From contig OZ287759.1 of NCBI GenBank assembly GCA_965649765.1, forward strand, positions 35,154,001 through 35,218,000: DNA of 64,000 nucleotides, written 5' to 3'. This stretch comes from Bispira polyomma. Its lineage: Eukaryota. The translations under genes were made by a program, and so were the position numbers. The number at the start of each line of letters is the position of its first letter. Positions within the stretch are counted from its first letter, which is position 1. This document shows positions 27,128 through 63,099 of this stretch, one piece after another. The notes under the pieces were generated by a model. It was not told the DNA's origin and did not search any database. It worked only from the letters and a program-made list of their open reading frames with translations.

Positions 27128-27216
27128 TCCATATGTTTGAGGTAGTTCCTTATAAGTGGTTTAGTGACTTTCAGCTCTCTGGAACCTATTTCCTTCAGTA
27201 TAAATACTGCCTCCAG

Positions 27217-27959: not shown

Positions 27960-28002
27960 ATGCTCTACAATCAGTGGTCGGTATAAAGTAAGCAGACCTA
28001 AG

Positions 28003-28093
28003 ATGTCAAAGATCCCAGTGCTCTGTCTGGTGTGTGGACACCTGTTATTGACCTTGTGGAGCCAAGGGGTAAGGTCACAGAGTGTGGTCAGAG
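28003..28093 (+). CDS. vWA/EGF gene coding exon 1 (signal peptide)
   Basis: [30 protein letters not shown]; donor AG|GTGAGT, phase 1. Confidence 0.75.
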
Positions 28094-31000: not shown

Positions 31001-34000
31001 TAGGAATTACAAGGGGTAGGGTTAGTGGTCAAGGTTATATCTTAATCATTGTTCTTAACGTTTCAGACTATAAGCAGGTAGATGCTAGGGATTAGAAGGG
31101 GTAGGGTTAGTGGTGAAGGTTATATCTTACTTATTGTTCTCCATGTTTCAGACTTAAAGCAGAGTACGTAGATGCTAGGGATTACACGGGGTAGGGTTAG
31201 TGGTCAAGGTTATATTTTACTCATTGCTCTCCATGTTTCAGACTATAAGCAGGTAGATGCTAGGGATTAGAAGGGGTAGGGTTAGTGGTCAAGGTTATAT
31301 CTTACTCATTGTTCTCCATGTTTCAGACTTAGAGAAGCAAGTAGATGCAAGGGATTACAAGGGGTAGGGTTAGTGGTCAAGGTTATATCTTACTCATTGT
31401 TTTTAATGTTTCAGACTTAAAGAAGCAGGTAGATGCTAGGAATTACAAGGGGTAGGGTTAGTGGTCAAGGTTATATCTTACTCATTGTTCTTAACGTTTC
31501 AGACTATAAGCAGGTAGATGCTAGGGATTAGAAGGGGTAGGGTTAGTGGTGAAGGTTATATCTTACTCATTGTTCTCCATGTTTCAGACTTAAAGAAGCA
31601 GGTAGATGCTAGGGATTAGAAGGGGTAGGGTTAGTGGTGAAGGTTATATCTTACTTATTGTTCTCCATATTTCAGACTATAAGAATGGGTTAAGGTTACA
31701 TATTACTCACAGCAATATCCCATGTTTCTACTTTAGACTGTGAGAAGAGGGTAGATGTGATCTTTGCTCTGGATGCCTCTGGTAGTATCACTCGGCCTGA
31801 CTTTGAGCGTGTTGTTAACTTTGTCCGGGACCTGGTGAGTCGTATGGATGTTGACAGTGGTAATGCACACGTGGGTGTGGTCACGTTTGCTGATGAACCC
31901 AAACTACAGTTCCACCTCAATACGTACACCTCAACCTCTGATATCTCACGCGTCATCTCCCGCATCAGATACACCACTGGGAAGACATTTACCCATGATG
32001 CCTTGTACTATGTGAAGGACGTGATGTTTACAGAGGCCAATGGTGACCGACCAGATGTGGACAATATTCTAATCGTCATTACTGATGGGGATTCAGAAAA
32101 TGCTACCCAGACCATTGTGGCTGCCAGGGAGGTGAGGGCAGATGGCACAGGACTAATCTCCCTGGGTATTGGCGACTGGGTTGCAGAGTATGAACTGGAA
32201 GGCATGGCCAGTCACCCCAAAGTCAGGAACATGTTCCGTGTGGAGGACTATGAAACTCTCTTTACGGCCACAGATTTGCTAGTGGAGACTGTGTGTGATG
32301 GTAAGTGATTAGCTTACAAATCTTTAGATTTAACGTCACTTTTCAGTTCACTTTTAACAACCGGCAGGCTTATTAGTAAAGTAATGCTGAGCTGAGTAGT
32401 TCACTTTTAGACAACCGACAGGCTATTGGTAGAGTAAAGCTGAGCTTTAGGTAGTTCATCAAGGATTTCTGAACTGCCACCACTTTCCTTAAAAAACTTA
32501 GACAATTTTCACTCATACATCGTGTGGGTCAGATTAAAGGAAATGGTGGGAGGAGAGAGTATTTTACCTCTTGCCATCGAGCCCACTCCGCTCCCCCCCC
32601 TCTTTGTATTCACTTTGAGTAGGGAACTCTGAATAAAAACTTTGCAGTTAATTTGTAGGTTTGTTTAGATTACTTTTCATTTTACAACTGAATCATACTC
32701 ACTAGCTTTGTCAAAAAAGCCATGTTTGTTGCTGATGTTTGTGTTCTGTTACAGCCGAATCTCGAGTATTATGGAAATTATGTACATTACAAGCAAAGGT
32801 ATTCACCCACTAGATGTGTCTTGTTTTTAGTGGTAGATGACTGTAACAGCAATCCCTGTCAAAATGGTGGAATTTGTATTGACTCCATGAACCAGTACTA
32901 TTGTAAGTGTGCCTTGGGCTACACAGGAAGGGACTGTGACCAGTGTAAGTACTCTACTTTAGAATTTTGGCATACATTTTGGCATACATTTTTACACATT
33001 AAAGTTACTGTGTATTATAATTTTGTCTGTTTTAGGGATACCTTTTCTACACATTAAAGTTACTCTATAATAATTTAGTCTGTTTTGGGCATACCTTTTT
33101 ACACATTAAAGTTACTATGTATTATAATATAGTCTGTTTTGGCGTACCATTTTACACATTAAAGTTACTCTGTATTAAAACTGAGTCTGATTTGGCATAC
33201 ATTTTCACACATTAAAGTTAGGTCATAGTTAGAGTTAATACATACATGTTTCCCTCAGCCTGCCAGCACAAGGCAGACGTTGTGTTTGCTCTCGACTCAA
33301 GTGGTTCCATCAAGAGAGAGAACTTCCACGTCATGCAGCAGTTTGTACAAGATATCATACATGGTGTAGACATAGAGGGAGGGGCCAGAGTGGGGGTACT
33401 GACATACGCATCAGAGGCACAGGTGAGTAGGTGCGGCCGGATTAGGGGTACTGAGGTACACATCAAAGGCACAGGTGAGCACAGGTGGGGCCAGAGTGGG
33501 GGTACTGACACACACATCAGAGGCACTGGTGAGTAGGTGAGACCAGGGTGGGGGTACAGATGTATGTATCAGAGGCACAGGTGAGTAGGTCGTGCCAGAG
33601 TGGGGGTACTGATGTATGCATCAGAGGCACAGGTGAGTAGATGGGGCCAGAGTGGGGGTACTACGGTACACATCAGAGGCACAGGTGAGTAGGTGAGACC
33701 AGAGTGGGGTACTGATGTATACATCAGAGGCACAGGTGAGTAGGTGGGGCCAGAGTGGGGGTACTGATGTATGCATCAGAGGTACAGGTGAGTAGATCGG
33801 CCCAGAATGGGGTAACTGAGATTCGCATCAAAAGCACAGGTAAGTACAGGTGGGGCCAAAGTGGAGGTACTGATTTGCGCATCAAAGGTGCAGGGAATGC
33901 ATAATTGAATACATAGCTCTTTAAACTATGCCAAAAGGAATGCAGGGATGGAGCTGTTCTAATGTTTTGAGGGTAAACTATTCCATAGAGTAGAGAGCTT

Positions 34001-37000
34001 TATTTGCAAAACTTTTATCAAAGTAAACCTTTGACCTGTGTACTTTGGGCTTATATTTACTGACATACAGAGGCACAGGTAAGTAGGTGGGGATACTGAT
34101 ACAAAGAAATGAGGGGATAGTGTTGGTGTACTGATATACTAAATGTCAGGTAAATGGTGTGTGATACCCATTCACACACATATAAATACCTGTCACTTTA
34201 GTGATGTGATTACTTTTTAAATTCTGAGGTACATAGTTCCCTAATGTCTATGTGTGTCTGTCTGTGTGGTGGTTTTAAAAGCTAAATAATGTTTTAAATG
34301 TTTAAAATATGTCTCAACATGAATACATATAGATCATGTCAAGTCAGAATATATACTTAGTTGCCTGTTTTGACATTTTATAAATACACTAATAGTAGGA
34401 TTTAATTAAACTATTTAAATGGAATGTTTGTAGAAAAAGTGTGTATATATTTATCTGATATGTTTTATAAGGTTAGCGTTAAGTTCTTCACTGTATTTGT
34501 TCTATATTGCTCATTTACAAATATAATGCCCACTATTGTCTGTGGTCTGTTTCCCAAAATGTGTTTACAATTGACTCATTAGCCTCGTCAACTTAGTAAA
34601 GACAAAACGACAATTACATCTTTAACCTGGTTTTCACTCAAAGAATTCTCTTTGTTGTAAGATTGAGGTGGGTTATTTTATGTATTTCTCTTATAATACA
34701 ACCCCTCATTATGAAATCTACCTGCGCAATTTATATACATTATATATGTCTTTGAAACTTTTTTTCATTGCATCAAAGAAAAGAAAACAATTTCTTAAAA
34801 AACCAGGCCCATTTAGTATTTAATGTGTGGTGAATTCTATTGGTGTTTGAGGGGGAGAGTGTCAAAGTGTTGTCTATAAAGGCTTTCAGAAATAGTATCA
34901 GTATCAAATAAAAGTGTTTTCGTCTTTAATTTACATTTGATTTGTTTACTATATTGTCATAATTTTCATGGTCGTTTTTGTTGTACATAAAGAAATACTA
35001 TTTATTATTAGTATATAACAGCAGACGTCCTTATGGCAGGTTATATATTCAGCTTGTACAAAATACTACAAAATTACACACCTACACACGAGACCTAAAT
35101 GTGTACTCCTTACACAACCAAACCATTTGGATATTCATTAATCAATAAGGTTTATTATTATTATTATTATTATTATATGATTTAAGGTTACTATTTACAA
35201 CTGTAGTATACAATGCTAAAATTTCTGTAGTTGATACATTGGCAGTGATTGCCTATTCAGACATATGTAAACTGATCCTATTTTACTGTATAAGGTTTGT
35301 TCTTGACTGTACTATTTACTTTGCCATCATGTAAGCCAATAATGTAGATCCACTTTAGTTCAGATTAGATACCTTAAAAAGCTTTACCATCCGAGGGATC
35401 AGGACAAATCTTCACCTTTCAGAAAAAAAAAAAAAAAGTAATCCAAGTGGTCTTACGGTTTGTAACTAATATTCACTCCAGTCTTTGAACAGCTCTCTAG
35501 CTGTCTGACATCAATTGAATCGTGAACGAATCATTCTGAATTGAAGTTAATCCCAGAGTAAACAGAATTTCTACTTATTGGTGCTACCATCAGAGGGAAA
35601 CGATTCTAACGTTATTTCCTGCAACTCTCCTGAGTAACAATACTCTTCCAATTCTCTGTCCAATGCCCTTCAAAAATACGTTTCAAACATCTGTCGATCC
35701 TGCGACTGCAACATTCATGACTTTTGTAGGGTTCGTCAACACCAAACTTTGGAAAATGCTGTTGCAATTGGAAATACCCTAGTGGCTTGTTGTCTTGATT
35801 ACTGCAACTCACTATCACATGGTATCGGAGAGGGGCAAATAAACAAGTATAAAATTCAAGGTAAATGTCCTCATTTTTAAGACTGCCTATGTGCAGCAGT
35901 CTCTCCACCTCTGACTTCTTACCCCCAAAAAAAACTAGCATGTTCAAATCATTTAAGGATGCAGCACATGCTGAATGAAATAATCTCCCTATCAGTCTTT
36001 ACACTGAGACAAGGATTAAAAAAAACCTCTCAAAACACATCTGTATCATCTTGCATTTCCGTTTTAACATTAGTCTGCTTGTTTTGAATAACCTTACATT
36101 ACAAACCTTTTCTTCTATCGGACTATTTTTTTGCTTACTGATTTGGATGTGCGCCACATTGATTGTGGTGCTATAGAAGTAAATCTTTCACATTATCAAC
36201 ATTACTCAGAATCCTCCGTCAGGAAACATCAATGGCTCTTCAACATGGCTCTTTCGTAACCCTTCACACATCCAGCTTCTGACTTGGAACCTTTTTACCC
36301 CTCTACTATTCCCACTACAGCATGTTTTATATTCGCCATAAGGAAGAAATTACATTTTGTTATATTTACATAATTTATGATAATGACATGTGTACAGAAC
36401 ATCCAACCCACCACAGGCCTTATATGTCACTAATCTAAATCTAACTAATCTAAACACAAAACATAATGCATGGTGTCAAAAGAATGACTACTATATGTAC
36501 CAGTACATGTATAAGAAACTATTTCTGAGATTTTAAGCTTTTTCAATAAATAAATGTAGAGGTTTTAATTCTTTCTTCATAACTTAAAAAAATACACAAT
36601 CATGCACGGAAACAATTGAAATCTCCAGAATATAATTCGCTTTCTCCAATAAGGTCAAACTCATCCTCGATCTTAACAATACACTTAAACACTTTCTCTC
36701 ACTAAATGGGATGTTTGTATATCTACCAACTACAACAGCTAGAGCTGAAATCATCATTCGTAATTTGTCACACTTCGTTGACATTTTGATATATTGTATG
36801 GGATTTTACTTAACTGCTTTAAAGTAATTTTTCCACTTTCTGTAAGTTTACATTAAACTTTATTATTGCACATACTACAACTAAGCTCTGACCAATATGG
36901 GTTCAAATCCAGTTTGTTCCTTTACGCAAGAATGTTTGTCAGGTACTTGACATATGTTAGTGGTTTTCAGTGCTTTATCACTAGTTTCTTCCACCACTGC

Positions 37001-40000
37001 ATCTGGCCGCCGCAATATGACCTAAGCTGTGGAAAGCAAACTAAATTGAATTCACACCACTACACCGACTCTTATTACTGCAGTAATGTCACTTCAGGCG
37101 GTGTTTAACTTGGGGGATTATAACACCACACAAGCAGTGCTGAATGCCTTTAACCTCCGGTTTTCTGGGGGGACAACAAACACTGCAGCTGCTCTGAGGT
37201 TATTAAGAGATTTGATGTTTACACCGAACAATGGGGACAGACCAGACAACATCAATGTGGTGATACTGATTACTGATGGCAAGTCTGATGACAGGTATAG
37301 TGTAATGAGACATGTATAGTGTGATGACAGGTGTAGTGTGATGAGAGGTATAGTGTGATGACAGGTATAGTCTGATGACAGGTGTAGTGTGATAACAGGT
37401 GTAGTATGATGACAGGTATATTGTGATGACAGGTGTAGTGTGATGACAGGTGTAGTGTAATGGCAGGTATAGTGTAATGACAGGTATAGTGTGAGGACAG
37501 GTATTGTGTAATGACAGGTGTAGTGTAATGACTGGTGTAGTGTAATGAGACAGGTATAGTCTAATGAGAGGTATAGTGTGATGACAGGTATAGTGTAATG
37601 ACAGGTGTAGTGTAATGACTGGTGTAGTGTGATGGCAGGTGTAGTGTAATGACAGGTGTAGTGTGATGGCAGGTGTAGTGTAATGACAGGTGTAGTCTGA
37701 TGACAGGTGTAATGTGATGACAGGTATACTGTAATGACAGGTGTAGTGTAATGACAGGTGTAGTGTGATGGCAGGTCTAGTGTGATGACAGGTGTAGTGT
37801 AATGAGACAGGTATAGTGTGATGACAGGTGTAGTGTGTTGACAGGTGTAGTGTGATGACAGGTATGGTGTGATGACAGGTGTAGTGTGATGACAGGTGTA
37901 GTGTAATGACAGGTATAGTGTAATGACAGGTATAGTGTGATGACGGGTGTAGTGTAATGACAGGTATAGTGTGATGACAGGTATAGTTTAATGACAGGTG
38001 TAGTGTGATGGCAGGTGTAGTGTAATGACAGGTGTAGTCTGATGACAGGTGTAATGTGATGACAGGTATAGTGTAATGACAGGCGTAGTGTGATGGCAGG
38101 TCTAGTGTGATGACAGGTGTAGTGTAATGAGACATGTATAGTGTGATGATAGATATAGTGTGATGACAGGTGTAGTGTGATGACAGGTGTAGTGTGATGA
38201 CAGATATAGTCTGATGACAGGTGTAGTGTGATGACAGGTATGGTGTGATGACAGGTGTAGTGTGATGACGGGTGTAGTGTAATGACAGGTATAGTGTGAT
38301 GACAGGTATAGTTTAATGACAGGTGTAGTTTAATGACAGGTGTGGTGTAATGACAGGTGTAGTCTGATGACAGGTATAGTGTAATGAAAGATATAGTCTG
38401 ATGACATGAAAAAAGGTGTATATGTGCAATTGTGATAAACTTAGTGACAGTCATTCGGAATATGGGGACAAGTGACACACTGGGCCAAGAACAAGCAGCT
38501 GTGATGCTCATTGGTGATGGCTTTATGTGCACCTGTGCATGAACAGGACACTAAAAACATTCTGCATGCATGTAGATTCCCTGATAAAAGTATACCGCTA
38601 TGTGGTGGGCACGTTTAATGTTAATTTAAATTACCTGACCACAAATAAAGGTGAAAAATTACTAGTTGCAAAGTAAGGTACATTTTGACAGCACATTGCA
38701 ATCGTTTAACATTACTACATGTAATTCACATTCTCTGAACAGATTTAAAGTCACAACTAAAGAGAAGTGCCAAATGTCTAATGTGTAAGTTATCTTACCA
38801 CAGAGAGCGGACACTTGAGGAAGCGGTAGAAACCAGAAATGCAGGAATACACTTATCTGTGATTGGAGTGGGACAAAGTATCCGGCCAGCTGAACTGAGG
38901 GGTGTGGCGACAGATCCAGATGATAAGAATGTGTACACAGTGAAAGACTTTAACGCACTTACAGGGATCATCACTAATGTGCTCAATGATGTGTGCAATG
39001 GTAAGGGACTATTAAGTAATTCGTGTCAAACAATCGTGTCTGCTGAAAATGGTGAGGGAGCATGAAGTAATTTATGTTCAACGATGTCAGGGACAATTGT
39101 TAGGGTGCATTCAGTAATTAATCTTTAATTATGTTTTTGTAAAGGTAAGAGGACATTAATTAATCCATTTTAATGATGTCTGCAATTCTAATTAAAAGAA
39201 AATTAGAATATAAGATTTTGTTGGTCATCTTTGATAAATCTGGTAATTCTACCTTTTCTAACCTTTTCTTGAACACTATATCCTATATCCCAAAGTTGAT
39301 TCACCGGATCTAATTGAATGTAATCAACAAGACCATGTCATGATTATTCTATGACAATTTGAATATAGTATCATATCTGGTAATAGGTAAAGACAACTAT
39401 AAAAACATTAAATTGTCAGCTAAGAAAGCACTAGACTTGGAAGGTAATTCTTCTTTACAATTGGGTAAGATAGTGTTTTTTGGGGAATGGACTAAAGTTT
39501 TTATTACATATATATAACGAATATTAAAAATATATGCTTTAATTCCACAGAATAGATTATATTTCTAGTGATTTATTGTCACAATTCACATAATTTTAGT
39601 TACAGTAGCTTTAAATTGTATTGTACTTCCACAGAAAACAATGATTGCTCTCCCAATCCTTGTCAGAATGGTGGCACCTGTCTGGATGGTATTGGGATGT
39701 ACACTTGTAGGTGTGCACCTGGATTTACTGGACCCCAGTGTGAGAGAGGTGAGCTGGCTACCCGGTGTTAGTCATAGATTCAAGTATAACATAGATATAT
39801 CTGAAATTTAGTTGAATAAATACTGTGAAACCAACGGTTCTGTCAATTTGTGCATGTTTTAGATTTTAAAAAGTAACTTAAGAAGTGCTATATTTACTCA
39901 TATACCCACTTCAACAAGCAGAAGTAAAATCAAAAAATTTAATTAGAACTGGAAAAATGTTAATTATTACTCACATAACAATTAGATAGTCTTCCACTTT

Positions 40001-43000
40001 TATCCCATAAATAACCTGTCATACCTCTTTTGTACCTGGCATTAAGATTAGTCTGTTGCAGTGGCATTTAACTGTCCACATGTCCCCCCGCTTATCACAC
40101 CCAGCTTGTGACACTGAGATGGACATTGTATTCATTGTGTACTAAGTAGTGATATCAGTCTGTTGAAATTGTATTTAACTGTACTTTATCCTTTATAACA
40201 CACATGTCCCCCCTCTTATCATACCCAGCCTGTGACAATGAGATGGACATTGCATTCGTTGTTGACTACTCAGGAAGTATCCAGAGAGAGAACTTTGCCA
40301 TGCTGGTCACCTTCCTCAAACTCCTGGTGGATGAAATGGATGTGGACTCTGGAAAGGTATCCCCAGAGTAACAGCAATACTTCATGTGATAAATAGGACC
40401 GTTTTAATGTTAATGCGTTACAGCTATAACACAACAATGTTTTAAATATCCTCTGTTGCGAGAAAGGTTCACAATCAATCGTAAGCAGCAGACATGTTAA
40501 GGTGGAAAAGCTAGCTAATGTTTTGCATTTTCCCCCCGAAAGCCTGTAATCCTTTTCACAGTATGAAGATTATTCCATTCAACAGGTGCTGCAATTTGAA
40601 ATGATCTTTAAGCTGCTAGTTTTGGGTAAGTCAGAGGTGGTGAGATTGATAGGGGATAAAATAGAGGATAATCTGGACTCCCAGTACTTCATGTGGGCTC
40701 TTTACACAGATTATTCATGGTTACAAACCAGCAATATTAATGAACCAATATTTAAATAGAACCTCCGAATTTCACCATAGCCATACATGCTTGTTGCTTT
40801 GGCAAACACTGTCCCTGTTCCAACAATTTTGAATATGGAATATGTCATTTCATGTTTTTCATGATATCAGGTAAAACAACCTTTTCAGCAATATGCAATA
40901 GTCATGTATGTTACAAGTATTCTATGAAAATTATGTTTGATCAGTTCAATCTGTTCTAGTTTCTATTTCCATGCCCCCTACTGTTGCCAGTAGTTTCCTA
41001 GTTTGACACTGTTTATGTGACCTTCACCTAGGTGCGCGTGTCAGTACTGACTTACAGTGACAATACCACCATCAACTTCTACCTGGATGAGCATAACAAC
41101 ACAGAATACATCAAGTTCGCACTGGACAAACTCAAGTTTGAGGGAGGCAAGACCAACACAGCAGGTGGGAAACTAGTGACAAACTCAGATCACACCGATT
41201 TTAAATATATAATTATTTAGACCTAAAAAACATCTCAAGTAAAGTAGCTTATTGACGATTCAAATTTAGCAGCAATGATACTGCTGCTGGTTTGGTTTAT
41301 GACCGGTTATAGTAAGGATTATTTGATATTTTACATCATAGTACCAACTTTAAATGTTTAAATTTAGCAATACACTACAAAATGAAAATGCTCTATTTGT
41401 AAAGCAAAACTTTGCACACTATATCTGTCTAGAACTTATGCCATTGGCTAAAGCTAAAACTAGGGAGAGCTGCTTTGTGATTACTAGTCTTGGACCTTTT
41501 TGTAGACAAAATCAGTTTTGCCAGTCAGAACTAATTCTTGCATATATTTGACACTACACCCAGGCATGACTGCTATGGTATCTATGTCTAGTGGGAAGGT
41601 TTTTCTATCAAAGATGTTATGCTCATGACAATATTATCATCATTTTGACCTTGTAGTTACGATGATCTTAACCTTAAGTGTCTTGTCCAAAACTATTCCT
41701 ACAGCTCCAAATAAATCTGGATTTGGCAACATTTTCCCATATCCTATATTCACTGTTTTACCTTGAGTAATTGTGCTTACAATACTGCCTGAATGATATA
41801 TCAGAAGACATATCTTGAAGAATGATTATATTTTATTCAAATTGTTCAGACTGCCGACATGTCAGATCAGTATGCTGATATTTGAAAATTCTTACAACTT
41901 TTGTGTTGATTTTGTTTACAGCTGATGAAGTTTTTTGTACCTAGTCACCTCTGTTTGTTTACAGAAGCCATCAGTACTATGAGACAAGATCTCTTCAATG
42001 TAAGCAATGGTGACCGCCAGTATGTGCCAAACTTTGCACTGTTGTTTACTGATGGGGTGCCAAATATGAACGAACATATGACCGTGAAAGAAGCTATCAA
42101 GGCGAAGATTGATGGGACACATTTAATTTTGGTTACTATGGGTAAGACATCCAAATGTGTGTCACACACATACCACTATAGATAGTTGTAACATGTAATA
42201 CAGGAACTGCTGAAGGTGGGTTGTTTGCAGAAAAGAAACAACTTCATCAACTACTCTGTTCTGATTTCCTCCACCAGTGTTACTACTGTAACAGTAATAC
42301 GTAATACAACCTTGTGTATATTTAACAACACTTACATCATGTAATAACAGACTTCAAAGGAAGTCAACAAAATGGTACAAAGATGACTCACGACTTCAAT
42401 CTCTTTTACGGTACACTAGAATTGTTAAAGACATCCACAGACACCAATATCACTTATTTTCTAGTACACAAATTCTGAGGCAACATCTACTCACACCATA
42501 GTATAGTCCAAAGTCCAGACACAGAAAGCATTGGATATATTGCTTGCTTGATATTTTGTATTGACGAGTATAATACTGTACTATTTGTACACATCCGGTT
42601 CAGTTGTCAGTGTATTCCTGGTGTAGTGTGTCTTACTGTTTGTTTAAACACATCAGTTTCAGTTCTCAGTGTATTCCTGATGTACTGTGTATTACTGTTC
42701 TGTTTATACACATCAGGTTCAGTTCTCAGTGTGTTCATGGTGTAGTGTATATAACTGTTCTGTTTATACACATCAGGTTCAGTTCTCAGTGTATTCCTGG
42801 TGTAGTGTGTATTATTGTTCTGTTTATACACATCAGGTTCCTATATTCTCTATTTTTATTCTTTTTGTACACATCAGGTACAGGACTCACCAGAGGTCAT
42901 AACTACCTCAAACTTCAGGGTATCCCCAGCGAACCGACTGCTGCTAACTTCTTCAATGTCCCTCGTTACAGTGAACTGAACAGGATTGTACCCGAAGTGG

Positions 43001-45527
43001 CCAACGCCATGTGTAATGGTAAGAGCTAGTGTGTGTCTCTGTATGTGTGAAAATTATGTAGTTTATCAGTTGTTTATCTGAGCTTATTAGGCATGTTGTA
43101 GAATTCACGAGGGATTGTAAGATATACTTTTAATTGTCATTTTATGGTATGATAAAGGGAACTTCTCAGTAACAATTCTTTGATACTTTCTGTGGAGATG
43201 CAATTTGCCATTGGCCAGCGACACTATTTATTTGCCAATTCATTGAACGCCTTTAATAAGAAAAAAGGTCATATTTGTGAAAGTTTTGTTATTTCAGACA
43301 TTGATGAATGTCAGGACAATCCCTGTGAGAATGGTGGTGTCTGTAGAGATGGTCTAAGGTCTTATCTGTGTCAGTGTACTACCAGGTTTACTGGTCTCAA
43401 CTGTGAGAGAGGTAAGTCAATGTATTATCAGGTTTACTGGTCTTAGCTGTGAGAGAGGTAAGTCAATCTACTACCAGGTTTACTAATCTCAACTGTGAGA
43501 GAGGTAAGTCAGTGTACTACTAGGTTTACTAGTCTCAACTGTGAGAGAGGTAAGTCAGTGTACTACCAGGTTTACTAGTCTCAACTGTGAGAGAGAGAAG
43601 TTAGTGTACTACCAGGTTTACTGGTCTTAACTGTGAGAGAGTTAAGTCACTGTTCTACCAGGTTTACTGGTCTCAACTGTGAGAGAGGTAAGTCAGTGTA
43701 CTACTAGGTTTACTAGTCTTAACTGTGAGAGAGGCAAGTCAGTGTACTACTAGGTTTACTAGTCTTAACTGTGAGAGAGGTAAGTCAGTGTACTGCCAGG
43801 TTTACTGGTCTTAACTGTGAGAGGCAAGCGAGTACTAATTGGTTTACTGGTCTCAACTGTGAGAGGCAAGTGAATATACTAATTGGTTTACTGGTCTTAA
43901 CTATGGTAAATCGAGGTCATTCACCTGAAATAACTAATTGTTAATACAAGATGAATACTATCAACAACCAGGACTACATTTTGTGAGTTGTCAAGTCATC
44001 TTGGACATTCTGATTTAGGACTTGTAGCTTGCAGAGTTTGGAGAGTTACCTTTTCAGTGTGTAAAAGAGTAGTTTGACCAGAATGTGCACATGTATTATG
44101 ACTGGTTTGACCTTGCATAACCTACTTCATGTGTTTCAGAATAGGCACATTTATTATAAACTATTTCAGAATAGGCACATGCATTATAGACTATTTCAGA
44201 ATAGGCACATGTATTATAGACTATTTCAGAATAGGCACATGTATTATAAACCATTTCAGAATAGGCACAAGTATTATAAACTATTTCATGTTGTATGACC
44301 TGTTTTATGTATTTCAGAATGTATATTTCAGAGTATACACAATATACCCTGTGTTAACTCGTGTGTAACCTGTTGTACACTGTGTATTTCAGAATTTATA
44401 CATCACAGAGCTATAGTGTTTGGGGCAGACATCAGTGGCAGTACATGTCAGTGTGTAGACACGTATTGTAGCCTGTTATATGCGTTTCAGAATGTTTCAC
44501 CTGTTTTGTAATATGTATTTCAGAATGTATGCGGCACAGACATTTGTCTTTGCAGCAGACATTCAGTGGCGGTAACTGTCATTGTGTGCACGTATTGTAA
44601 TCTGTTTTACTTGTATATCACAATGTATCTCTCACCTGTTTTATACCATGTTATTCAGAATGTATGCAGCACATAGACATAGTCTCAGTAACCGTACATG
44701 TCGGTGTGTATACATATAATATAACCTGTTGTATACCATGTATTTCAGAATGTATGCGGCACAGAGACCTAGTCTCAGTAAAAGACATCAGTGGCAGTAC
44801 ATGTCGGTGTGTATACATGTAATATAATCTGTTTTATACCTAGTATTTCAGAATGTATGCAGCACAGACATAGTCTCAGTAGAAGACATCAGTGGCAGTA
44901 CATGTCGGTGTGTATACATGCAATATAACCTGTTTTATACCATGTATTTCAGAATGTATGCGACACAGAGACATAGTCTTTGTAGTAGACATCAGCGGGA
45001 GTATAGAGGACAACAATGGCTTTGACACAGAACGCTCCCTTATGAAGGAACTCATCTACGGCCTGGACTTCAGTTTTGGCAGGACTCGTGTTGGATTTGT
45101 GACCTTTGCCAACGTCGCCCAAACCAAGTTTTATTTGCACGACTACATCTCCGACTTTGCACAGCAAGACGTGCTGAATGCGCTTGTGATTGACACGATA
45201 GGACACCAGACTAACATTTCAGACGGGATCAAAGAGGCCAGAGACAAGCTGTTTGTAACAGAGCTGGGGGACAGAGGTGGGGTGGATGACATCCTGGTAC
45301 TGATAAGTGACGGCAAAAACACTATTGGCAAGAATTCAGAGACTGAGTACGAGGCCAGGCTGTGTCTGGAGAGAGGTATAGAGGTGTACACAGTGGCTGT
45401 AGGGAATGTACCTAATGTGGGATTACTAGAGACACTGGCTGCCTCCTCATCTACCAAGTACTGGGTCAAAGAAAGGGCAGATGTGGAGGAAACAGCGAAG
45501 GAAATGTTAGACACGCTGTGTCTGTGA
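28003..45527 (+). CDS. Secreted vWA/EGF extracellular matrix protein (matrilin/collagen VI-like; SP-vWA3-EGF-vWA-EGF-vWA-EGF-vWA), 15 coding exons, ~1295 aa
   Basis: Exons 28003-28093, 28653-29243, 29646-30233, 31737-32300, 32831-32944, 33259-33422, 37098-37294, 38804-39000, 39635-39748, 40229-40356, 41032-41164, 41965-42141, 42878-43018, 43298-43411, 44953-45527 sum to 3888 nt. All introns are GT-AG with matching phases. DxSxS/TDG MIDAS motifs and CxxNPCxNGGxC EGF motifs are present. Confidence 0.9.
28653..29243 (+). CDS. vWA/EGF gene exon 2 (vWA1, degenerate MIDAS)
   Basis: [16 protein letters not shown]...TRVGV; 591 nt, phase 1-1. Confidence 0.9.
29280..29640 (+). repeat. 12-bp minisatellite filling intron 2
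   Basis: (tgtatgtttacc)n with ccattgtgttta variants, running directly into the acceptor tgtgtatttcag|CCTGT. Confidence 0.95.
29646..30233 (+). CDS. vWA/EGF gene exon 3 (vWA2)
   Basis: [18 protein letters not shown]...VVTDGSS; 588 nt, phase 1-1. Confidence 0.92.
30705..31700 (+). repeat. 85-90-bp acceptor-junction array (12 AG copies) in intron 3
   Basis: Unit ...ccatgtttcAG|acttagagaagcaagtagatg... resembles the real junction ccatgtttctactttAG|ACTGTGAGAAGAGGGTAGATG. Confidence 0.9.
31737..32300 (+). CDS. vWA/EGF gene exon 4 (vWA3)
   Basis: [17 protein letters not shown]...VITDGDS; 564 nt, phase 1-1. Confidence 0.92.
32831..32944 (+). CDS. vWA/EGF gene exon 5 (EGF1)
   Basis: [35 protein letters not shown]; 114 nt. 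Confidence 0.92.
32965..33220 (+). repeat. ~54-bp tandem repeat filling intron 5
   Basis: ttttggcatacattttacacattaaagttactgtgtattataat...gtctg, about 5 copies. Confidence 0.85.
33259..33422 (+). CDS. vWA/EGF gene exon 6 (vWA4 N-part)
   Basis: [17 protein letters not shown]...[12 protein letters not shown]; donor CAG|GTGAGT, phase 0. Confidence 0.9.
33381..33890 (+). repeat. ~52-bp donor-junction array (~9-10 copies) in intron 6
   Basis: Unit ggggccagagtgggggtactgatgtatgcatcagaggcacAG|GTGAGTaggt copies the last ~42 nt of exon 6 plus the donor; one more copy at ~34060-34100. Confidence 0.92.
36600..36800 (-). mobile_element. CR1-like LINE C-terminal remnant
   Basis: [23 protein letters not shown]...EDEFDLI motif; further LINE-like scraps at ~35600-36180. 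Confidence 0.5.
37098..37294 (+). CDS. vWA/EGF gene exon 7 (vWA4 middle)
   Basis: AVFNLGDY...[10 protein letters not shown]...GDRPD...LITDGKSDD; phase 0-2. Confidence 0.9.
37282..38410 (+). repeat. 17-bp donor-junction array (~65 copies) in intron 7
   Basis: Unit agtgt(g/a)atgacAG|GT(g/a)t derives from the junction AGTCTGATGACAG|gtat; exact agtctgatgacagg copies recur inside the array. Confidence 0.95.
38804..39000 (+). CDS. vWA/EGF gene exon 8 (vWA4 C-part)
   Basis: [23 protein letters not shown]...ATDPD...VCN; phase 2-1. Confidence 0.9.
39635..39748 (+). CDS. vWA/EGF gene exon 9 (EGF2)
   Basis: [37 protein letters not shown]; 114 nt. Confidence 0.92.
40045..40270 (+). repeat. Single ~124-bp duplication of the intron 9/exon 10 acceptor junction
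   Basis: Decoy cttatcacacccAG|cttgtgacactgagatggacattgtattc (AG ends 40104) versus real cttatcatacccAG|CCTGTGACAATGAGATGGACATTGCATTC (AG ends 40228). Confidence 0.85.
40229..40356 (+). CDS. vWA/EGF gene exon 10 (vWA5 part 1)
   Basis: [22 protein letters not shown]...MDVDSGK; phase 1-0; not in the ORF track. Confidence 0.85.
41032..41164 (+). CDS. vWA/EGF gene exon 11 (vWA5 part 2)
   Basis: [18 protein letters not shown]...GGKTNTA; phase 0-1. Confidence 0.88.
41965..42141 (+). CDS. vWA/EGF gene exon 12 (vWA5 part 3)
   Basis: [10 protein letters not shown]...[16 protein letters not shown]...VTM; phase 1-1. Confidence 0.88.
42575..42885 (+). repeat. 60-bp acceptor-site array (~5 copies) in intron 12
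   Basis: Unit ...ttctgtttatacacatcAG|gttcag versus real tttttgtacacatcAG|GTACAG. Confidence 0.88.
42878..43018 (+). CDS. vWA/EGF gene exon 13 (vWA5 part 4)
   Basis: [19 protein letters not shown]...AMCN; phase 1-1. Confidence 0.85.
43298..43411 (+). CDS. vWA/EGF gene exon 14 (EGF3, calcium-binding type)
   Basis: [38 protein letters not shown]; 114 nt. Confidence 0.92.
43370..43905 (+). repeat. 46-bp donor-junction array (~11 copies) in intron 14
   Basis: Unit gtcagtgtactaccaggtttactggtctcaactgtgagagAG|GTAA equals the last ~42 nt of exon 14 plus the donor. Confidence 0.95.
44125..45005 (+). repeat. Acceptor-junction arrays of intron 14: 30-bp units (44125-44300), then 90-103-bp units (44300-45005)
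   Basis: tatttcAG|aat is repeated; long units copy ccatgtatttcAG|AATGTATGCGACACAGAGACATAGTC...GACATCAGCGGGAGTA. Confidence 0.9.
44953..45527 (+). CDS. vWA/EGF gene exon 15 (vWA6, stop codon)
   Basis: [17 protein letters not shown]...RTRVGFVTF...LISDG...LDTLCL*. Confidence 0.92.
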
Positions 45528-48796: not shown

Positions 48797-49059
48797 TTTG
48801 AATTTGAATTTGGATATTTAACGTCCACTCTAGTACCTTTTAGTAGGTTATATTGAGATGTGTAGTTGATAACGCTGGAGGAAACACTGCATACAGTCGG
48901 TCAAGGTTCTGCAGAGAAACCAGCGGCCCACAGTAAGGAACTACCACATTTCCCACATAGGCATCGACGGGATTCGAACTCACGCCGCCCAGAGGTGAGA
49001 GACCAGTGATTGTGAAGCGCAATGCTTGCTAACCACTAGGCCACTGCGGCCCCACCTCC
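48797..49059 (-). mobile_element. Young tRNA-derived SINE, copy 6
   Basis: (CAAATT)n tail; 9-bp TSD caataggag. Confidence 0.9.
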
Positions 49060-49964
49060 CAATAGGAGCCACAGACAGCTATCTGTTGTTAACTGGGCCC
49101 GATGCATCTCACTTTCGGTCAACCATTACGTGTTATTAGGCCTGGAAAAGTATTAGATTACCCACACTGTGAAGGCAGCAAACAATATAATAAAGATAAT
49201 TGAAGCATTTAGAAAGCACTAAATTGATAAAAAAACATCCTCTAAGGCCATACTATCCAAAAAGGAAGGTCTACAGCCAAGCCAAAAAGGTTGTTACCAA
49301 AACAATCCCACCCCTAAGAAAGGGGGTAGGCCAGTCTGAAAAGTTATGTTTTAAGTTGGCTTCTGAAACCAGTGATTGTATCCTGTGATAACTACTCACC
49401 AAGGCATACCTAGGTATAGTCATATATTTTATTATATTAAACATTGTAAAAATATTTGTACACAAATTATATTACTTTGAGATATATTCATGTTTAGTCA
49501 TAAATATCTACAATTTCCAAAACTTTCCCTTGTTGCTGTGTTCTAAAGTATTTTTATAGCCAAGATTTTTAGACACCAACTATTCATCATTGCAAAAACT
49601 AAATTTCCAACTGATTTGGCCATACATTGCTTTGAAAAGGGAAAAGCGCCAGGAAAAAATAGTTAATATTTGTATTGTGTTGAATATATGTATGATCCTA
49701 TACATATATATATACCCCATGGTATGTTTTACATCTCTTACTCATTTAAATAAACTCATTTCAGTTGCAAAAATGTAAAAGCTTTTTAAAGTTATATGGT
49801 ATATTGTTGTCAAATGGGTCATCTCCCATTGCAATTGTAAATTTAAAAGCCCACTTGCAAGTAACTTTTTTGGTGTAAAACATTTTTATATGTGAATTTG
49901 AGACTTTCACAAGTTTTTGCTGTGTTTACCTTACATAAATTTGAAAAGGTCCAGTAATTTTTTA

Positions 49965-51914: not shown

Positions 51915-52730
51915 CAACCTGACCTTAGACAGTAGAGACGCCCACTCCCCCACCCCTCTCTATACAACCTTACCTTAGACAGTAGAGACGCCCACTCCCC
52001 CACCCCTCTCTATACAACCTTACCTTAGACAGTAGAGACGCCCACTCCCCCACCCCTCTCTATACAGCCTTACAGTGGACAGTACAGACACCCTCCTTCC
52101 CCCACCCTTCTCTATACAGCCTTACCTTAGATAGTAGAGACGCCCCCTCCCCCACCCCTCTCTATACAGCCTTACCTTGGACAGTAGAGATGCCCCCTCC
52201 CCCACCCCTCTCTATACAGCCTTACCTTAGACAGTAGAGACGCCCCCACCCCTCTCTATACAGCCTGACCTTAGACAGTACAGACGCCCCCTCCCCCACC
52301 CCTCTCTATACAGCCTCACCTTAGACAGTAGAGACACCCCCACCCCTCTCTATACGGCCTTACCTTAGACAGTAGAGATGCCCCCTCCCCTACCCCTCTC
52401 TATACAGCCTTACCTTGGACAGTAGAGACGCCCCCTCCCCCACCCCTCTCTATACAGCCTTACCTTAGACAGTAGAGACACCCCCTCCCCCACCCCTCTC
52501 TATACAGCCTCACCTTAGACAGTAGAGACGCCCCCACCCCTCTCTATACAGCCTTACCTTAGACAGTAGAGACATCCCCTCCCCCACCCCTCTCTATACA
52601 GCCTTACCTTAGACAGTAGAGACGCCCCCACCCCTCTCTATACAGCCTTACCTTAGACAGTAGAGACATCCCCTCCCCCACCCCTCTCTATACAGCCTTA
52701 CCTTAGACAGTAGAGATGCCCCCTCCCCCA
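51915..52730 (-). repeat. 50/44-bp donor-junction array (~16 copies) in the last XPB intron
   Basis: Minus-strand unit ggggagggggcgtctctactgtctAAG|GTAAGGctgtatagagaggggt copies the end of exon 52702-52824. Confidence 0.95.
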
Positions 52731-52824
52731 TCAATCTTTCCTCCTCAGCGTCAGTATCGTTGGCTGCACACACTTTCTGAAGTAACTGGGCTTGTTCTTC
52801 TTTAGTGCTGTAGTACAGATCCGC
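52702..52824 (-). CDS. ERCC3: XPB penultimate exon
   Basis: [41 protein letters not shown] (compare XPB [28 protein letters not shown]); phase 0-0. Confidence 0.93.
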
Positions 52825-52964
52825 CTGAAACAGAAAGATTGACCCAACTGAAGTCATTGAAAGTAATGTCAAACTATCCATTTCTGTTACCAGGAGTGGG
52901 CTGTGGATTCTCTACATATTAACTATAATAGACAGCTCTTGTCACCCAAGTCTTACATTGATTG

Positions 52965-53617: not shown

Positions 53618-53990
53618 CTACAAGTACAGGAGGGTAAAGTTATCACCCCTACTATAAGTAGGGCAGTATAGGATAAAGCTAGCACCCCTACAACAAGTAG
53701 AGGTAGATAGGATAAAGCTAGCACCCATACTACAAGTAGAGGAGTACAGGATAAAGTTATCACCCCTACTACAAGTAAAGGAGTAGAGGATAAAGTTATC
53801 TCCCCCACTACTACTACAGGAGTAGATGATAAAGTTATCACCCCTACTACTGTACAGGAGTAGAGAGGATAAAGCTATCACCCTACTACAAGTACAGGAG
53901 TAGAGGATAAAGTTATCACCCCTACTACAAGTACAGGAGTAGAGGATAAAGTTATTACCCCTACTACAAGTAGATGAGTACAGGATAATG
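53615..53990 (-). repeat. ~39-bp acceptor-site array (~9 copies) upstream of XPB exon 53469-53617
   Basis: Minus-strand unit ggtgataactttatcctctactcctgtacttgtAGtagg; real acceptor cctcctgtacttgtAG|GTGCG. Confidence 0.88.
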
Positions 53991-53994
53991 GTGA

Positions 53995-54910
53995 CCCCAC
54001 AGTGTCACGTGATTAAAGGGACCATAGTGTCAGGTGATACAAGAGATCAGTGTTAGGTGACCCAAGGGACCAAGGTGTCAAGTGATACAAGGGACCAAGG
54101 TGTCAAGTGATACAAGAGACCACATTGTCAGATGATCCAAGGGACCACAGTGTCAGATGATTCAAGGGACCACAGTGTCAGGTGATTGAAGTGACCACAG
54201 TGTCAGGTAATACAAAAGATCAGTGTCAGGTGACCAAAGGGACCAAGGTGTAAGGTGATACAAGGGGCCATAGTGATACAAGGAACCACATTGTCAGGTG
54301 ATACAAAGGACCAAGTGATACAAGAGACCACAGTGTCAGGTGATACAAGGGACCACAGTGTCAGGTGGTAGAAGGGACGACAGTGTCAGGTGATACAAGG
54401 GACCATAGTGTCAGGTGATACAAGGGACCATAGTGTCAGGTGATACAAGGGACCAGTGTCAGGTGATAGAAGGGACCACAGTGTCAGGTGATACAAGAGA
54501 CCATAGTGTCAGGTGATACAAGGGACCACAGTGTCAGGTGATACAAGGGACCATAGTGCCAGGTGACCACACAGTGTCAGGTGATACAAGCGACCATAGT
54601 GTCAGGTGGTAGAAGGGACCACAGAGTCAGGTGATACAAGGGACCACAGTGTCAGGTGATACAAGGGGCCATAGTGTCAGGTGATACACAATGTCAGGTG
54701 ATACAAGGGACCATAGTGTCAGGTGATACAAGGGACCACAGTGTCAGGTGATACAAGGGGCCATAGTGTCAGGTGATACAAGAGACTATAGTGCCAGGTG
54801 ACCACACAGTGTCAGGTGATACAAGGGACCACAGTGTCAGGTGATACAAGGGACCACAGTGTCAGGTGACCACACAGTGTCAGGTGATACAAGGGACCGC
54901 AGTGTCAGGT
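53995..54910. repeat. ~25-bp minisatellite (~35 copies)
   Basis: gtgtcaggtgatacaagggaccaca. Confidence 0.92.
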
Positions 54911-55282
54911 GGGAGGCAAGGGTGAGCAGTATTTTGCTATGTGGATGATTCTTGGAGAGTTTATAAAATTTACCTTACAAAGATTGCTGATACAGGCACA
55001 ATTGTTGTATAATCCTTACACTATTTAAGTGTATAATTAACCCAAAATACTTTACTATATATAGTAACATCCAGTTTACAGGATAATTGTCGTCCTACAT
55101 ATTTGTCTGTGCACCTGTTGATGCATGCAAATAATATTCCTAGAAGAGTATCCAGTTATTCCTAAAACCCGGAGGTAAACATCGATTACAGATTTCCATG
55201 GAAATTTTGTTGGTGTACATTTATTGAAGGTTGGAACTAATAGATCTGATCAGTGTGCAAGCACTTGCAAGGTAAACAATGA

Positions 55283-58087: not shown

Positions 58088-59690
58088 TTAGGTCATTAAG
58101 TTAATGAGATTGCCTTTCATGTCAATCAGTACTTTTTTCTGTGTGTACAAGCCGGTCTTTCCTTTAGTTGTCTCCTTGGCAGTGTGATGGTATATTCCTG
58201 ACCCCTGGTGTGTGTTGTCCCTCTCCACCACACTAGCAGTAGTACCGGTCCAGTCCTTCATCTCCTCTGGATCCTCCTGGATCTGTGCTGTTCCAGACTT
58301 AGGACATCCAAACCACCAGGTGGCTGTATCCCTGGGATAGGGATCGCCTGGACTTGAATCTATGGCACCTTTAACTTTAGACATCCTGTAATACTGGGTC
58401 CCTCTAAAGAAGTAGGTGTGTACCATGCTGTCTATGTAGAGACTCAGACTGGCGTCTATTGGTGTGGTCAGTCCTTTCACTGTGTTAGAGAGTGACCGTG
58501 GGTAGCCGCTATCTACCCGCCCTGTGCCTACCCTCCGAGTCACCCTCCAGTACTGATCTCCCTTCACAAAGTACACCTTCCTCCCGTCTACTGTAAACAC
58601 TGTGTCTATAGGGGTAGGGATGCCTGGGTACAGCTCACTGATAGCTTGACTCTGAACAAACGCCGCCGAGTCCAACACTCCATCCTCGTACATAAAGTAG
58701 TGGTCACCTTTAAACAGTAACAGTTGCTGGCTCTGTACCCGTTTATAGGAAGAACAGTGACTAGTGACGCCGTCATACTTACACCGATACTGCCAGAGCT
58801 CAGGCAGATAGAGCCCTGCGTCCAGGTCTCTAGGCAACTCGGGAAAGGCATTACCAATGAGTTGTGGGTAGCCGGTTACATGACCTGGTTTATACAGATC
58901 TATCTGAGTAACGTACTGACCAGTGAACACAAAGATACGACCCTGTCTGTCTGTGGTGACAGCGTCCACAGAGGGGTCAGTACACAGGTCAATGTCTGCT
59001 TTGGGTGACTGGTCCAATGTGGGGGTGGTAGGTTCTGAAGTCTCAGGGCTTGTGGACTGGTCCAATGTGGGGGTGGTAGGTCTTGAAGTGGGATTATTAG
59101 TAGTTTGTGTAGTAGGCTGTGGTGCTGTAGTGGAGTGCAGTGTAGTAGACACAGATGTTGACTCTGTAGTGCTGTCCCCTGTAGACCCAGGCATGCCATA
59201 CAAGTGCTGGATACCCTCAATGTCATCTCTATGAAGTAGGACTTCAAAGCCAGGCCTGTAGTAAGGATACATGACCGAGTTATAGACATTGGAATGACCT
59301 AACCCTAAGGCATGACCTATCTCATGGAGTACCACCTGGTACAAGTCTTTGGACCTCTGTGTTAGCCGTCTAATCACCCAGGGCTCCGTGTCATCCACAT
59401 GGATATCTCCAGCATAAAACAGACTCCGTGGAGAGTAGGCGTGGGCGAGTACCCCCCCTTTCCCGTCAAACGGGTAGGAGTCACCATGACTACCGTTAGT
59501 AAACTTGATGTCAATATCTGCTGTGTGGGAGAGGTGGTGTTTGGTAAAGGTTAGACCAGAGACCTCCTGCCACTGACTGAAGGCTTCCTCTACTGTGTAC
59601 TGAGTGTCTGACTCACTCACACTGTGGGGGGAGTTAAGGACTCGGTATGTGAGGGCAGTCTTCTGCCACCCAGCTTCCAGTATTGTGTAC
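58088..59690 (-). CDS. Matrix metalloproteinase exon 2 (catalytic domain, Thr-rich hinge, hemopexin domain, C-terminal tail)
   Basis: HGDSYPFDGKGGVLAHA, HEIGHALGLGH zinc motif, SVMYPYY Met-turn, hemopexin DA...FFRG/GYPR repeats ending WFGC. Phase-2 acceptor ttacAG|GTAC gives RKKR-YTIL. Confidence 0.95.
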
Positions 59691-59992
59691 CTGTAATATT
59701 GTAAATATAGAGTATTGTGTACCTGTAAAATAGTAAATATAGAGTATTGTGTACCTGTAATATAGTAAATATAGAGAGTTGTGTACCTGAAATATAGTAA
59801 ATATAGAGTGTTGTGTACCTGTAATATAGCAAATATAGAGTATTGAGTACCTGTGATATAGTAATTATAGAGTACTGTGTAAATGTAATATAGTAAATAT
59901 TGAATATTGTGTACCTGTAATATAGTAAATATAGAGTATTGTGTACCTGTAATATAATAAATATTGAGTATTGTGTACCTGTAATATTGTAA
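59681..59992 (-). repeat. 32-bp acceptor-junction array of the MMP intron, proximal block (~10 copies)
   Basis: Minus-strand unit ctctatatttactatattacAG|gtacacaata, identical to the real junction. Confidence 0.95.
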
Positions 59993-61631
59993 CAAGAGGA
60001 GAATGGCCTGGCGGCCATATCATGATAATGCCACTAAAAGCTATTGTGAGATTCACATAAAGTATTTACAATTTGTAAATTATATCAAGGTAAATAATAA
60101 TGCTTTTTGTATTTTGCTTTATTTATCTATATGAAATACATCAATGGTTAGATTTTAGAAATAAAACAGTTGCATTTTTCTTTAAAAACATACAGAAATC
60201 CATCCCACCAAAATAAAAGATCAACTGTTTTTGTTCTCTTTTTTGAACAGTGTGTAAATCTGGTATGTTATACACGTGTCATTGTATGCCCCATTCACAC
60301 ATTGGTGGTATGGTAGGAGGTACTTACAAATTTTTATAACTTGTCATTCCGCGTGCCATTCCGGCTGATCCATCTAGAAGAAATATAACTTTCAAATGGC
60401 GTAAAACTTGTCAGATAAGTTTCACAGAAAATTACTGGAACTAAAGTTATGGTAGGGATACGGAAATACTAAGATTTCTGAGTACTAAGTTTTTTAAGTG
60501 AAAGATTTCTTAGTGATATACTCGGGAAGGAAAAGGCAATTTTCATAACTTCTCTTATAATCTTTCCATACCGTCATAGTGTGAACCCTACATTAGTATG
60601 TAGATGTGTTAATCACTTGTTTCTAAAAAAACTGTTCAAGACTTGACATCATGGTATACATGTTTTACTTTACTATATTGAAATACAAGATATATATTTT
60701 ACTTGTTGACTGGAATTTCTTCAAGAAATATGGATTTACCTTAAATATAAACAAAAGTTCTGATGATGTAAAATCTTTGGTAAGACAATGTAACAAAAGT
60801 TCTGATGATGTGAAATCTTTGGTAAGGCAATGTAGCATATTTTTTGTATCTTGCAACTGAACTTACACTGCAAAGTCATAAATCTAAACTATCCAGACAT
60901 GGTGCTGATAGATTTATGGTTGCACACAGCAGGGGATGGGGGAGGGAAAAAAAACATTTAAAGGTTCCGAAAGACACTTATTCCATAGACTGTATATTGG
61001 GTTCACAATATTTTTTTCCTCAGCTTGATACAGTAAAGAATCTAAAATTTGCTCCTGTATCTAAAATTTGCCACCCCTAAAATTTAAGCCAAATAAATAA
61101 AAACTGGAAAAAATAACTGGTAAGGAAGGCCAATATTAGTCATAAAAATATCAATTGAAGCAAATATTTTTAACCACAATTCCACCCAAAACACGTTTTC
61201 TAGGTGGCGAATTTTAGATGGTGGCAAATTTTATATTTCTTACAGCCACAACCACCAATCAACCAAAGTATATATATATATATATAGGTTATATATCTTC
61301 CCAAACCTGATGTTTATCATACACTGTATATATATATTCCCTTTGAAACCATTTGAAATGGGCGGTAATGGACCCTTCAATCAAATCTGAGGCTCCCAAT
61401 ATATAAAACTTTAATAACTTCTACTATACTGCACATAATCACACCAAATTAATTTTGGACCAACTAGAGACAAAAGAGTGTATATATACCAAATATAAAA
61501 GCACAAATCCCTACAGATTCAGAGATTACGCTGTGGACACGTTGTAACCATGCGTAACCAAGGGTCTTTCACTATCTCCTTCTGTCTCTACTAAAACATG
61601 ATTATGCCAATAAGCATTGGCATAATCATGC
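59993..61631 (+). mobile_element. ~1.64-kb insertion (Helentron/Helitron-like, probably composite) splitting the 32-bp array
   Basis: Array phase continues across it (tattgtaa|...|aaatatagag). Starts (aa)caagag; ends with a perfect 15-bp hairpin catgattatgccaat-aagc-attggcataatcatg (61597-61630). No TSD seen beyond the A run. Confidence 0.6.
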
Positions 61632-62182
61632 AAATATAGAGTATTGTGTATCTGTAATATTGTAAATATAGAGTATTGTGTACCTGTAATATAGTAAGTA
61701 TAGAGTATTGTGTACCTGTAATATATTAAATATAGAGTATTGTGTACCTGTAATATATTAAATATAGAGCATTGTGTACCTGTACTATTGTAAATATAGA
61801 GTATTGTCTACCTGTACTATTGTAAATATAGAGTGTTGTGTACCTGTACTATTGTAAATATAGAGTATTGTGTACCTGTAATATATTAAATATAGAGTAT
61901 TGTGTACCTGTACTATTGTAAATATAGAGCGTTGTGTACCTGTAATATATTAAATATACAGTGTTGTGTACCTGTACTATTGTAAATATAGAGTGTTGTG
62001 TACCTGTACTATTGTAAATATAGAGTGTTGTGTACCTGTAATATATTAAATATTGAGTATTGTGTACCTGTACTATTGTAAATATAGAGTATTGTGTACC
62101 TGTAATATATTAAATATAGAGTATTGTGTACCTGTACTATTGTAAATATAGAGTGTTGTGTACCTGTAATATATTAAATATA
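61632..62182 (-). repeat. 32-bp acceptor-junction array of the MMP intron, distal block (~17 copies)
   Basis: Same unit as 59681-59992 (tattgtgtacctgta(a/c)tat...aaatatagag). Confidence 0.95.
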
Positions 62183-62189
62183 AGGTTTT

Positions 62190-62772
62190 ATTTAACAAAT
62201 CTCATTTCGTTTATTTCTATTGATCTTTCTATAACAAATCTCACTTTTTCTTTATTTCCTGTTACAGTTTACAAAACAAATTTTCTTTGTTTTTGTTCCT
62301 CTATACTGTTAACAGAACACTATAAGAAATATCAACTTTTATTTCTATATTCTATTAAGCTCAATACAACAACTCTCATTTTTCTATATTTCTATTGAAC
62401 GGTCTATAATAAATCTCACTTTTCTACATACCATTGACCTTTCACTGACCAGTCTCACTTGTCTATTACCCTTTCTCTACCAAATCTCACTTTTCTATAT
62501 ACCATTGACCTTTCTCTAACCAATCTCACTTTTCTATATACCATTGACCTTTCTCTAACCAATCTCACTTTTCTATATTCCATTGACCTTTCTCTAACCA
62601 ATCTCACTTTTCTATATACCATTGACCTTTCTATAACAAGTCTCACTTTTCTATAAAATTATATCCATTGACCTTTCTCTAACAAATCTCATCGTTTCTA
62701 TATTCCATTGACCTTTCTCTAACCAATCTCACTTTTCTATTACCCTTTCTCTAACCAATCTTACCTTTTCTT
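62190..62772 (-). repeat. 39-bp donor-junction array of the MMP intron, decaying distally
   Basis: Minus-strand unit agaaaa|GTGAGattggttagagaaaggtcaatggtatat versus real AGAAAAG|GTAAGattggttagagaaagg. Confidence 0.9.
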
Positions 62773-63099
62773 CCTCTCTGCCAGTAAGTTGCTGTCAGGA
62801 CAGCCACATCTTGGTTTCTCCATCCATTCCCTGGTTTCTGTGTCCACTTTTCCTGTTTCTGGCAGTCCCCACAGATGCTGGAAATTGCGTACACTCCTGG
62901 TATAGCTGGTGTCACCCGAGTGGGTGTATCCAAACTTCTGCAAGAAGACTTGGGTGTTGAGAGCGAGGGGGAGTGTTCCAGTGGAGGGTGGAGGATATCT
63001 GGGGTGAACTCTCCATTGAGGTAGGGATACACTCACGCTCACTATACCGGTCAGTATTACTACCGTCCAAGGGGTCAGTGGGAAGAGGTGACCACACAT
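62765..63099 (-). CDS. Matrix metalloproteinase exon 1 (signal peptide, propeptide, cysteine switch, furin site)
   Basis: MCGHLFPLTPWTVVILTGIVSVSVS...FLQKFGY...RNFQHLWGLPETGKVD...MEKPRCGCPD...RKKR; donor AAG|GTAAGA, phase 2; joined protein ~645 aa. Confidence 0.92.

Follow-up and report, generated by a model that had tools for sequence, protein, structure and literature searches.

The window, that is, the whole 64,000-nt stretch of Bispira polyomma DNA that was analyzed, carries on its minus strand an MMP gene with two coding exons and one predicted intron. Exon 1 (62765–63099) encodes a hydrophobic N-terminus, the propeptide, the cysteine switch and the furin motif, and ends in phase 2. Exon 2 (58088–59690) is a single uninterrupted frame for the catalytic domain, a Thr/Pro linker and the hemopexin domain, with the ORF stop at 58088. 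The junction is a prediction from the reading frame and places a GT..AG, phase-2 intron of 3,074 nt at 62764–59691 (minus strand), inside the last Arg of the furin motif. Once joined, the two exons give an open MMP frame with the Pfam domains PG_binding_1, Peptidase_M10 and Hemopexin. In long alignments, no named homolog of the product exceeds 35% identity; P0001, the protein closest to it, is 52% identical. P0001 begins about 45 residues into the exon-2 product, a hint that an intron may interrupt its gene, too, somewhere in this region. A metagenome scan returned eight matches, distant or short, and no ortholog of the gene; likewise, no relatives of the exon-1 product were detected among proteins of 61–195 aa. 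No publication dealing with this position of an MMP intron turned up in a literature search of incomplete coverage.

The sequence-only reading had described the intron as a donor array and an acceptor array plus one insertion, with almost no unique sequence, and our analysis confirmed this anatomy. The donor-type array (62196–62764, minus strand) is built from a 39-nt unit made of two halves of about 20 nt; it is well conserved as far as 62374 and degenerate beyond. The half-unit that holds the repeated donor shares 15 of 20 nt with the real junction. The acceptor-type array has a 32-nt unit, in which 12 nt correspond to the start of exon 2 and 20 nt to the end of the intron. It lies on the minus strand in two blocks: a distal one (61632–62195), with units 1–17 and the start of unit 18, and a proximal one (59691–59990), which runs from the end of unit 18 to unit 27 and ends in the predicted authentic acceptor. 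AG is present at 26 of the 27 unit ends and AG|GT at 25. Without the insertion the intron measures 1,433 nt, and TRF repeats cover 1,222 nt of it (85%). Aligned to the donor unit, the stretch 62373–62190 outscored all of 500 shuffles; the exception is some 70 nt within it (62340–62270), where 180 of 500 shuffles did as well. As only these ~70 nt are not recognizably repeat-derived, the description as almost devoid of unique sequence holds.

Judged by their sequence, the two arrays are amphioxus-type “mirage” minisatellites, an already named repeat type and an ordinary one for this genome. As in mirages, the tandem units span an exon–intron boundary together with its splice dinucleotide. They are also specific to this locus: a 22-mer from the acceptor unit gave 20 local matches and three elsewhere, a control pattern also gave three, all five matches of a donor 20-mer were local, and a DNA search for dispersed copies of the units returned self matches only. 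Concerted evolution within the cluster, a further mirage criterion, is seen in the 88–89% identity of the units and in variants restricted to one block. The variant gtactattgt occurs in 8 of 17 distal units vs none of nine proximal ones (Fisher p = 0.023), so the earlier observation of a distal-only variant stands. The claim attached to it, that the blocks have diverged since the insertion, is not borne out, as the four distal units adjoining the insertion (14–17) are without the variant; unit 16 has a proximal-type variant and unit 17 is identical to the terminal unit. The gradient therefore need not postdate the insertion and may be older than it.

The element that splits the acceptor array (59991–61631, minus strand) is 1,641 nt long, non-coding and DINE-1/HINE-like (Helentron-associated), and it sits in the T run of acceptor unit 18. 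At its 5′ end, a 13-nt subterminal inverted repeat (subTIR) is accompanied by an adjacent inverted copy with an 8-nt loop (61597–61630). The 3′ end (60003–60033) holds the matching subTIR (60021–60033, 12 of 13 positions) and a hairpin with a 6-bp stem (60003–60018). Excising the insertion in silico restored an intact 32-nt acceptor unit. When 40 of 5,237 candidates were scored, 38 were other near-full copies (at least 1,430 nt aligned at 91–94%), and one more matched in two pieces. These results bear out the proposal that a hairpin-ended insertion had split the array, and show that it is a dispersed element. At the 17 measurable loci (20 fetched), TT lay beside the copy on the 5′ side in 16 and on the 3′ side in 15. 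No ORF of at least 90 aa was found inside the insertion. Its ends match loose ends of DNA contigs, which are collapsed contigs from three runs on two samples of one study, none of them spanning the arrays.

Three of ten Rep-domain loci share the last 44–56 nt of the insertion at 88–91% identity, downstream of their ORFs and in sense orientation. No match to the 5′ end of the insertion was found upstream of the Rep ORFs. The shared 3′ end suggests that the Helitron-Rep loci could supply an autonomous partner for the insertion. Separately, the Helitron-Rep open frames at L094, L096 and L092 extend over 2,246, 2,246 and 1,982 aa, and frames of this length suggest that the genome holds intact rolling-circle elements. 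The insertion resembles the DINE-1/HINE non-autonomous Helentrons (PMC4067079) in its 13-nt subTIRs, the inverted copy by the 5′ subTIR and the 3′ stem-loop, as well as in its T-rich target, which has T's on both sides and is otherwise unaltered, the lack of a coding frame and the high copy number. It differs from those described in that its family is unnamed and that its autonomous partner is indicated by the shared 3′ end alone. We classify it as an ordinary high-copy transposon insertion of the DINE-1/HINE-like kind.

To rate the many splice sites of the intron, we used matrices derived from 41 inferred introns. The authentic donor scored 11.0 bits vs at most 9.7 for the decoy donors. The authentic acceptor scored 6.7 bits, and several decoy acceptors scored higher, up to 10.1; local strength therefore does not explain the choice of the last acceptor. 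Use of a decoy AG|GT acceptor would yield a truncated protein in 22 of 24 cases and add 32 or 96 residues in the other two. The extra splice sites are probably silent decoys, and the arrays likely harmless: splicing would proceed from the donor that is both first and strongest, and exon definition would select the last acceptor, which alone borders a real exon. The intron offers a clean natural test of 3′ splice-site choice, with 25 near-identical decoy acceptors, some of them higher-scoring, ahead of the real one.

The AG|GT context of the units had also been read as compatible with stepwise splicing, in which case the acceptor array would be a chain of recursive (ratchet) splice sites that rescue or stage intron removal. 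Like ratchet points (PMC8605326), the units juxtapose an acceptor and a donor (AG|GT) inside an intron. Splicing to any of the 25 AG|GT unit ends would leave a new donor behind, and the scores of many decoy acceptors are good. We nevertheless consider this role highly improbable, because the donor that it would regenerate is weak: with 2.4 bits, against the 11.0 bits given above, it outranks only 2 of the 41 inferred donors. Nor are AG and GT conserved beyond the rest of the unit (0, 1, 2 and 0 mismatches at these positions in 26 units, with 14 of the 32 unit positions having none). An identical weak donor would moreover persist in the mature mRNA, and acceptor arrays in the neighboring gene also form with AG|GA or AG|AA, without the GT. 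At most known ratchet points the regenerated donor is strong and the host intron long (PMC8605326), whereas the MMP intron is short (3 kb), its regenerated donor is weak, and its dozens of unconserved copies, 32 nt apart, are known here from sequence alone. On the predicted junction, the GT of the unit is just how exon 2 begins: it is dictated by Arg-Tyr codons and found in paralogs too.

Similar arrays occur at other splice sites of the window. The VWA/EGF-repeat gene (27956–45527, plus strand) has 15 exons and a stop-free spliced frame, and a word test detected arrays at 6 of its 29 splice sites, namely acceptors 27956, 42878 and 44953 and donors 33422, 37294 (62 copies) and 43411. In the same gene, an 88-nt array before acceptor 31737 is array-like by eye and failed the word test. 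Our comparison set consisted of 41 other introns, 14 from the VWA gene and 27 from MMP genes, the latter left after 14 of 41 automatically called MMP introns were dropped as doubtful or duplicate. Four donors and three acceptors in this set were repeated at least twice, and both-end arrays were found in two introns, VWA intron 14 (78% array) and an L032 intron at the ancestral catalytic-domain position. Since the L032 intron occupies an ancestral MMP position, such arrays do not reveal how an intron was born. Of 82 junction-spanning 16-mers, one per site, 7 (8.5%) were repeated, vs 11.6% of 820 random intronic 16-mers, a control that includes arrays. Random words being repeated as often, the arrays show no preference for splice sites in this sample.

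Further repeats were noticed. As read by eye, another minus-strand gene has a 50-nt donor-type array (51918–52730) after a short exon near 52730–52826, and a 39-nt array (53630–53988) ending at a likely acceptor near 53630. Arrays with 26- and 25-nt units and AG|GT-like words lie at 25354–26364 and 53997–54911, where no adjoining exon was found. Two similar copies of a dispersed element of about 250 nt, SINE-like by eye and with a tRNA-like head, lie in opposite orientations at ~26870–27130 (plus strand) and ~48800–49060 (minus strand).

We then compared the intron position among MMP paralogs. A Pfam search gave 61 exon-level MMP matches, and 39 surrounding stretches were fetched, in which 32 paralogs were readable at the furin site, the others being incomplete here. 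In all 12 readable multi-exon paralogs the donor, in phase 1, follows the furin-site Arg by four codons, which puts it exactly 14 nt downstream from the donor studied here. The other 20 read straight through the furin site without an intron, one of them with a stop codon. None of the 32 shares the position of the studied intron, which is not the ancestral site; relative to these paralogs, the position is derived. The AG|GT proto-splice context reported previously is indeed present at the intron position. It is favored by the Arg-Tyr/Phe codons and also occurs in paralogs such as L033, L034, L040 and L049.

The studied gene is without the ancestral propeptide, catalytic and hemopexin introns. 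Trees were built from alignment-derived fragments, with nine partial loci omitted (L056, L058–L062, L064–L066). The studied MMP and P0001 come out together (100/100); the group around them (92/72), which the trees do not resolve, also holds three multi-exon genes and an 8-gene clade keeping only a propeptide intron. The trees likewise do not resolve the sister group of the gene. MMPs with no coding intron at all form two separate lineages, L021/L022 and L047–L052, and the former groups with the multi-exon L030 (100/99), as expected for retrocopies. The 8-gene clade (L023–L026, L028, L037, L053 and L057; 100/100) has one coding intron, in phase 0, shifted downstream by 5 nt (non-3n) relative to the ancestral propeptide intron, which is in phase 1; the donor was read in L026 and L028, and L053 has a stop at the furin motif. 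By its predicted position, this intron is a second near-intron pair in the family. Fully intronless genes in two lineages together with an intron-poor clade indicate that wholesale intron loss is recurrent among MMPs.

The sequence-only reading had taken the AG|GT context as compatible with an origin by tandem duplication. Such a birth should leave an intron whose first part resembles exon 2 and whose last part resembles exon 1, and an old duplication could be erased. Compared with shuffles, the intron start did not resemble the exon-2 start (p = 0.58), nor the intron end the exon-1 end (p = 0.88), and this origin found no support. In the Rogers model, tandem exon duplication around the proto-splice site would have created the intron and the arrays would be its fossil. 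A position shared by none of the paralogs (12 use the site 14 nt downstream and 20 have no intron) fits this model, as does AG|GT, which is among the criteria in PMC2891723. The donor and acceptor units are unrelated, however (p = 0.71), and both-end arrays are also found in the L032 intron at an ancestral position, and we judge birth by this route unlikely. The intronic part of each unit is non-exonic, which means that the arrays copied an already formed intron; as read from their units, the arrays are young. Derivation from a small TIR transposon (Introner-like), which would have brought the GT and used a duplicated AG, is less likely again. Its terminal inverted match (8/9 and 13/20 nt) is the highest of 42 introns and AG flanks both ends, but part of the match is splice consensus and the test was chosen post hoc. 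No dispersed copies of either intron end and no Introner family were found in the genome, and the donor and acceptor arrays paired with each other no better than shuffled units did (as low in 351 and 246 of 500 shuffles). The inverted match itself pairs 62756–62764 with 59693–59701, before the final AG (8/9; 6 and 10 of 1,722 cross pairs, again post hoc).

Relocation of the ancestral post-furin intron 14 nt upstream, possibly by boundary duplication or reverse splicing, would make the studied intron one of a near-intron pair. The constant 14-nt distance to the donor of all 12 readable multi-exon paralogs fits this reading, and so does the 8-gene clade, also intron-poor, with its single intron 5 nt from another ancestral site; two near pairs in one family would be unlikely under uniform gain (rough estimate under 1%). 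On the other hand, 14 is not a multiple of 3, as stepwise sliding needs (PMC2891723), no trace of a relocation remains in the sequence, and the tree leaves its sister group open. The first codons of exon 2 also follow the pattern seen across the family, with Tyr behind the furin site, and hence are not exonized intron. Relocation is thus a possible but doubtful origin, and a move to AG|GT driven specifically by mirage-type duplication is improbable. If true, the latter would give a real example of intron repositioning by a model that has until now been a proposal for amphioxus globins, and the MMP clade with the 5-nt shift would be an independent second case in the same family. We lean slightly towards loss of all introns followed by an independent gain, through an insertion that is no longer traceable.

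Altogether, we have fairly good confidence in a history in which boundary arrays grew in a pre-existing intron and received a Helentron-type insertion later, the extra splice sites being silent decoys and the position derived through intron loss followed by gain or repositioning. Most likely, the ancestral introns of the gene were lost by way of a cDNA, as happened in other MMP lineages. An intron would then have been gained or repositioned at the AG|GT site fixed by the Arg-Tyr codons, and the arrays would have come later. Each of them copies one exon–intron boundary, and the copies likely multiplied locally, by slippage or unequal exchange, at the two ends of the intron. A Helentron-associated element subsequently entered the T run of one acceptor unit, as its excision shows. 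The derived position is the part worth following: the data show that it is derived and single out no mechanism of origin. If it could be tied to boundary duplication, this unusual position would bear on how new intron positions arise.

The studied intron and the ancestral site 14 nt downstream resemble the near intron pairs of Lehmann et al. 2010 (PMC2891723), whose table classes a 14-nt, non-3n distance as of “unknown origin”; those pairs come from orthologs, whereas our comparison is between paralogs. For the arrays, the closest known systems are the mirages of amphioxus Adh3, the globins BflGb6 and BflGb9, troponin C and PGBD5, reported not to disturb splicing (PMC3087553, PMC3902484). In the same sources, mirages had been proposed earlier for amphioxus, by Ebner et al., as a route to new introns or intron positions. 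The 32- and 39-nt MMP units fall within the 10–72 nt range quoted for the Adh3 mirages. Compared with the amphioxus cases, both ends of the MMP intron were amplified until they met, one array was split by a Helentron-type element, the intron position is unique in its family, and splicing is known here by prediction alone. The 37-bp VNTR in intron 7 of human F7 is a donor-type repeat of identical copies, of which the most upstream donor is used (PMC1557585). The MMP intron likewise has an authentic donor followed by repeated pseudo-donors, but none of its decoy donors is as strong as the real one, and it carries an acceptor array too, whereas the F7 repeat is a donor array only. The MMP intron is an unusually complete example of a known repeat type, combined with an ordinary Helentron-type insertion.
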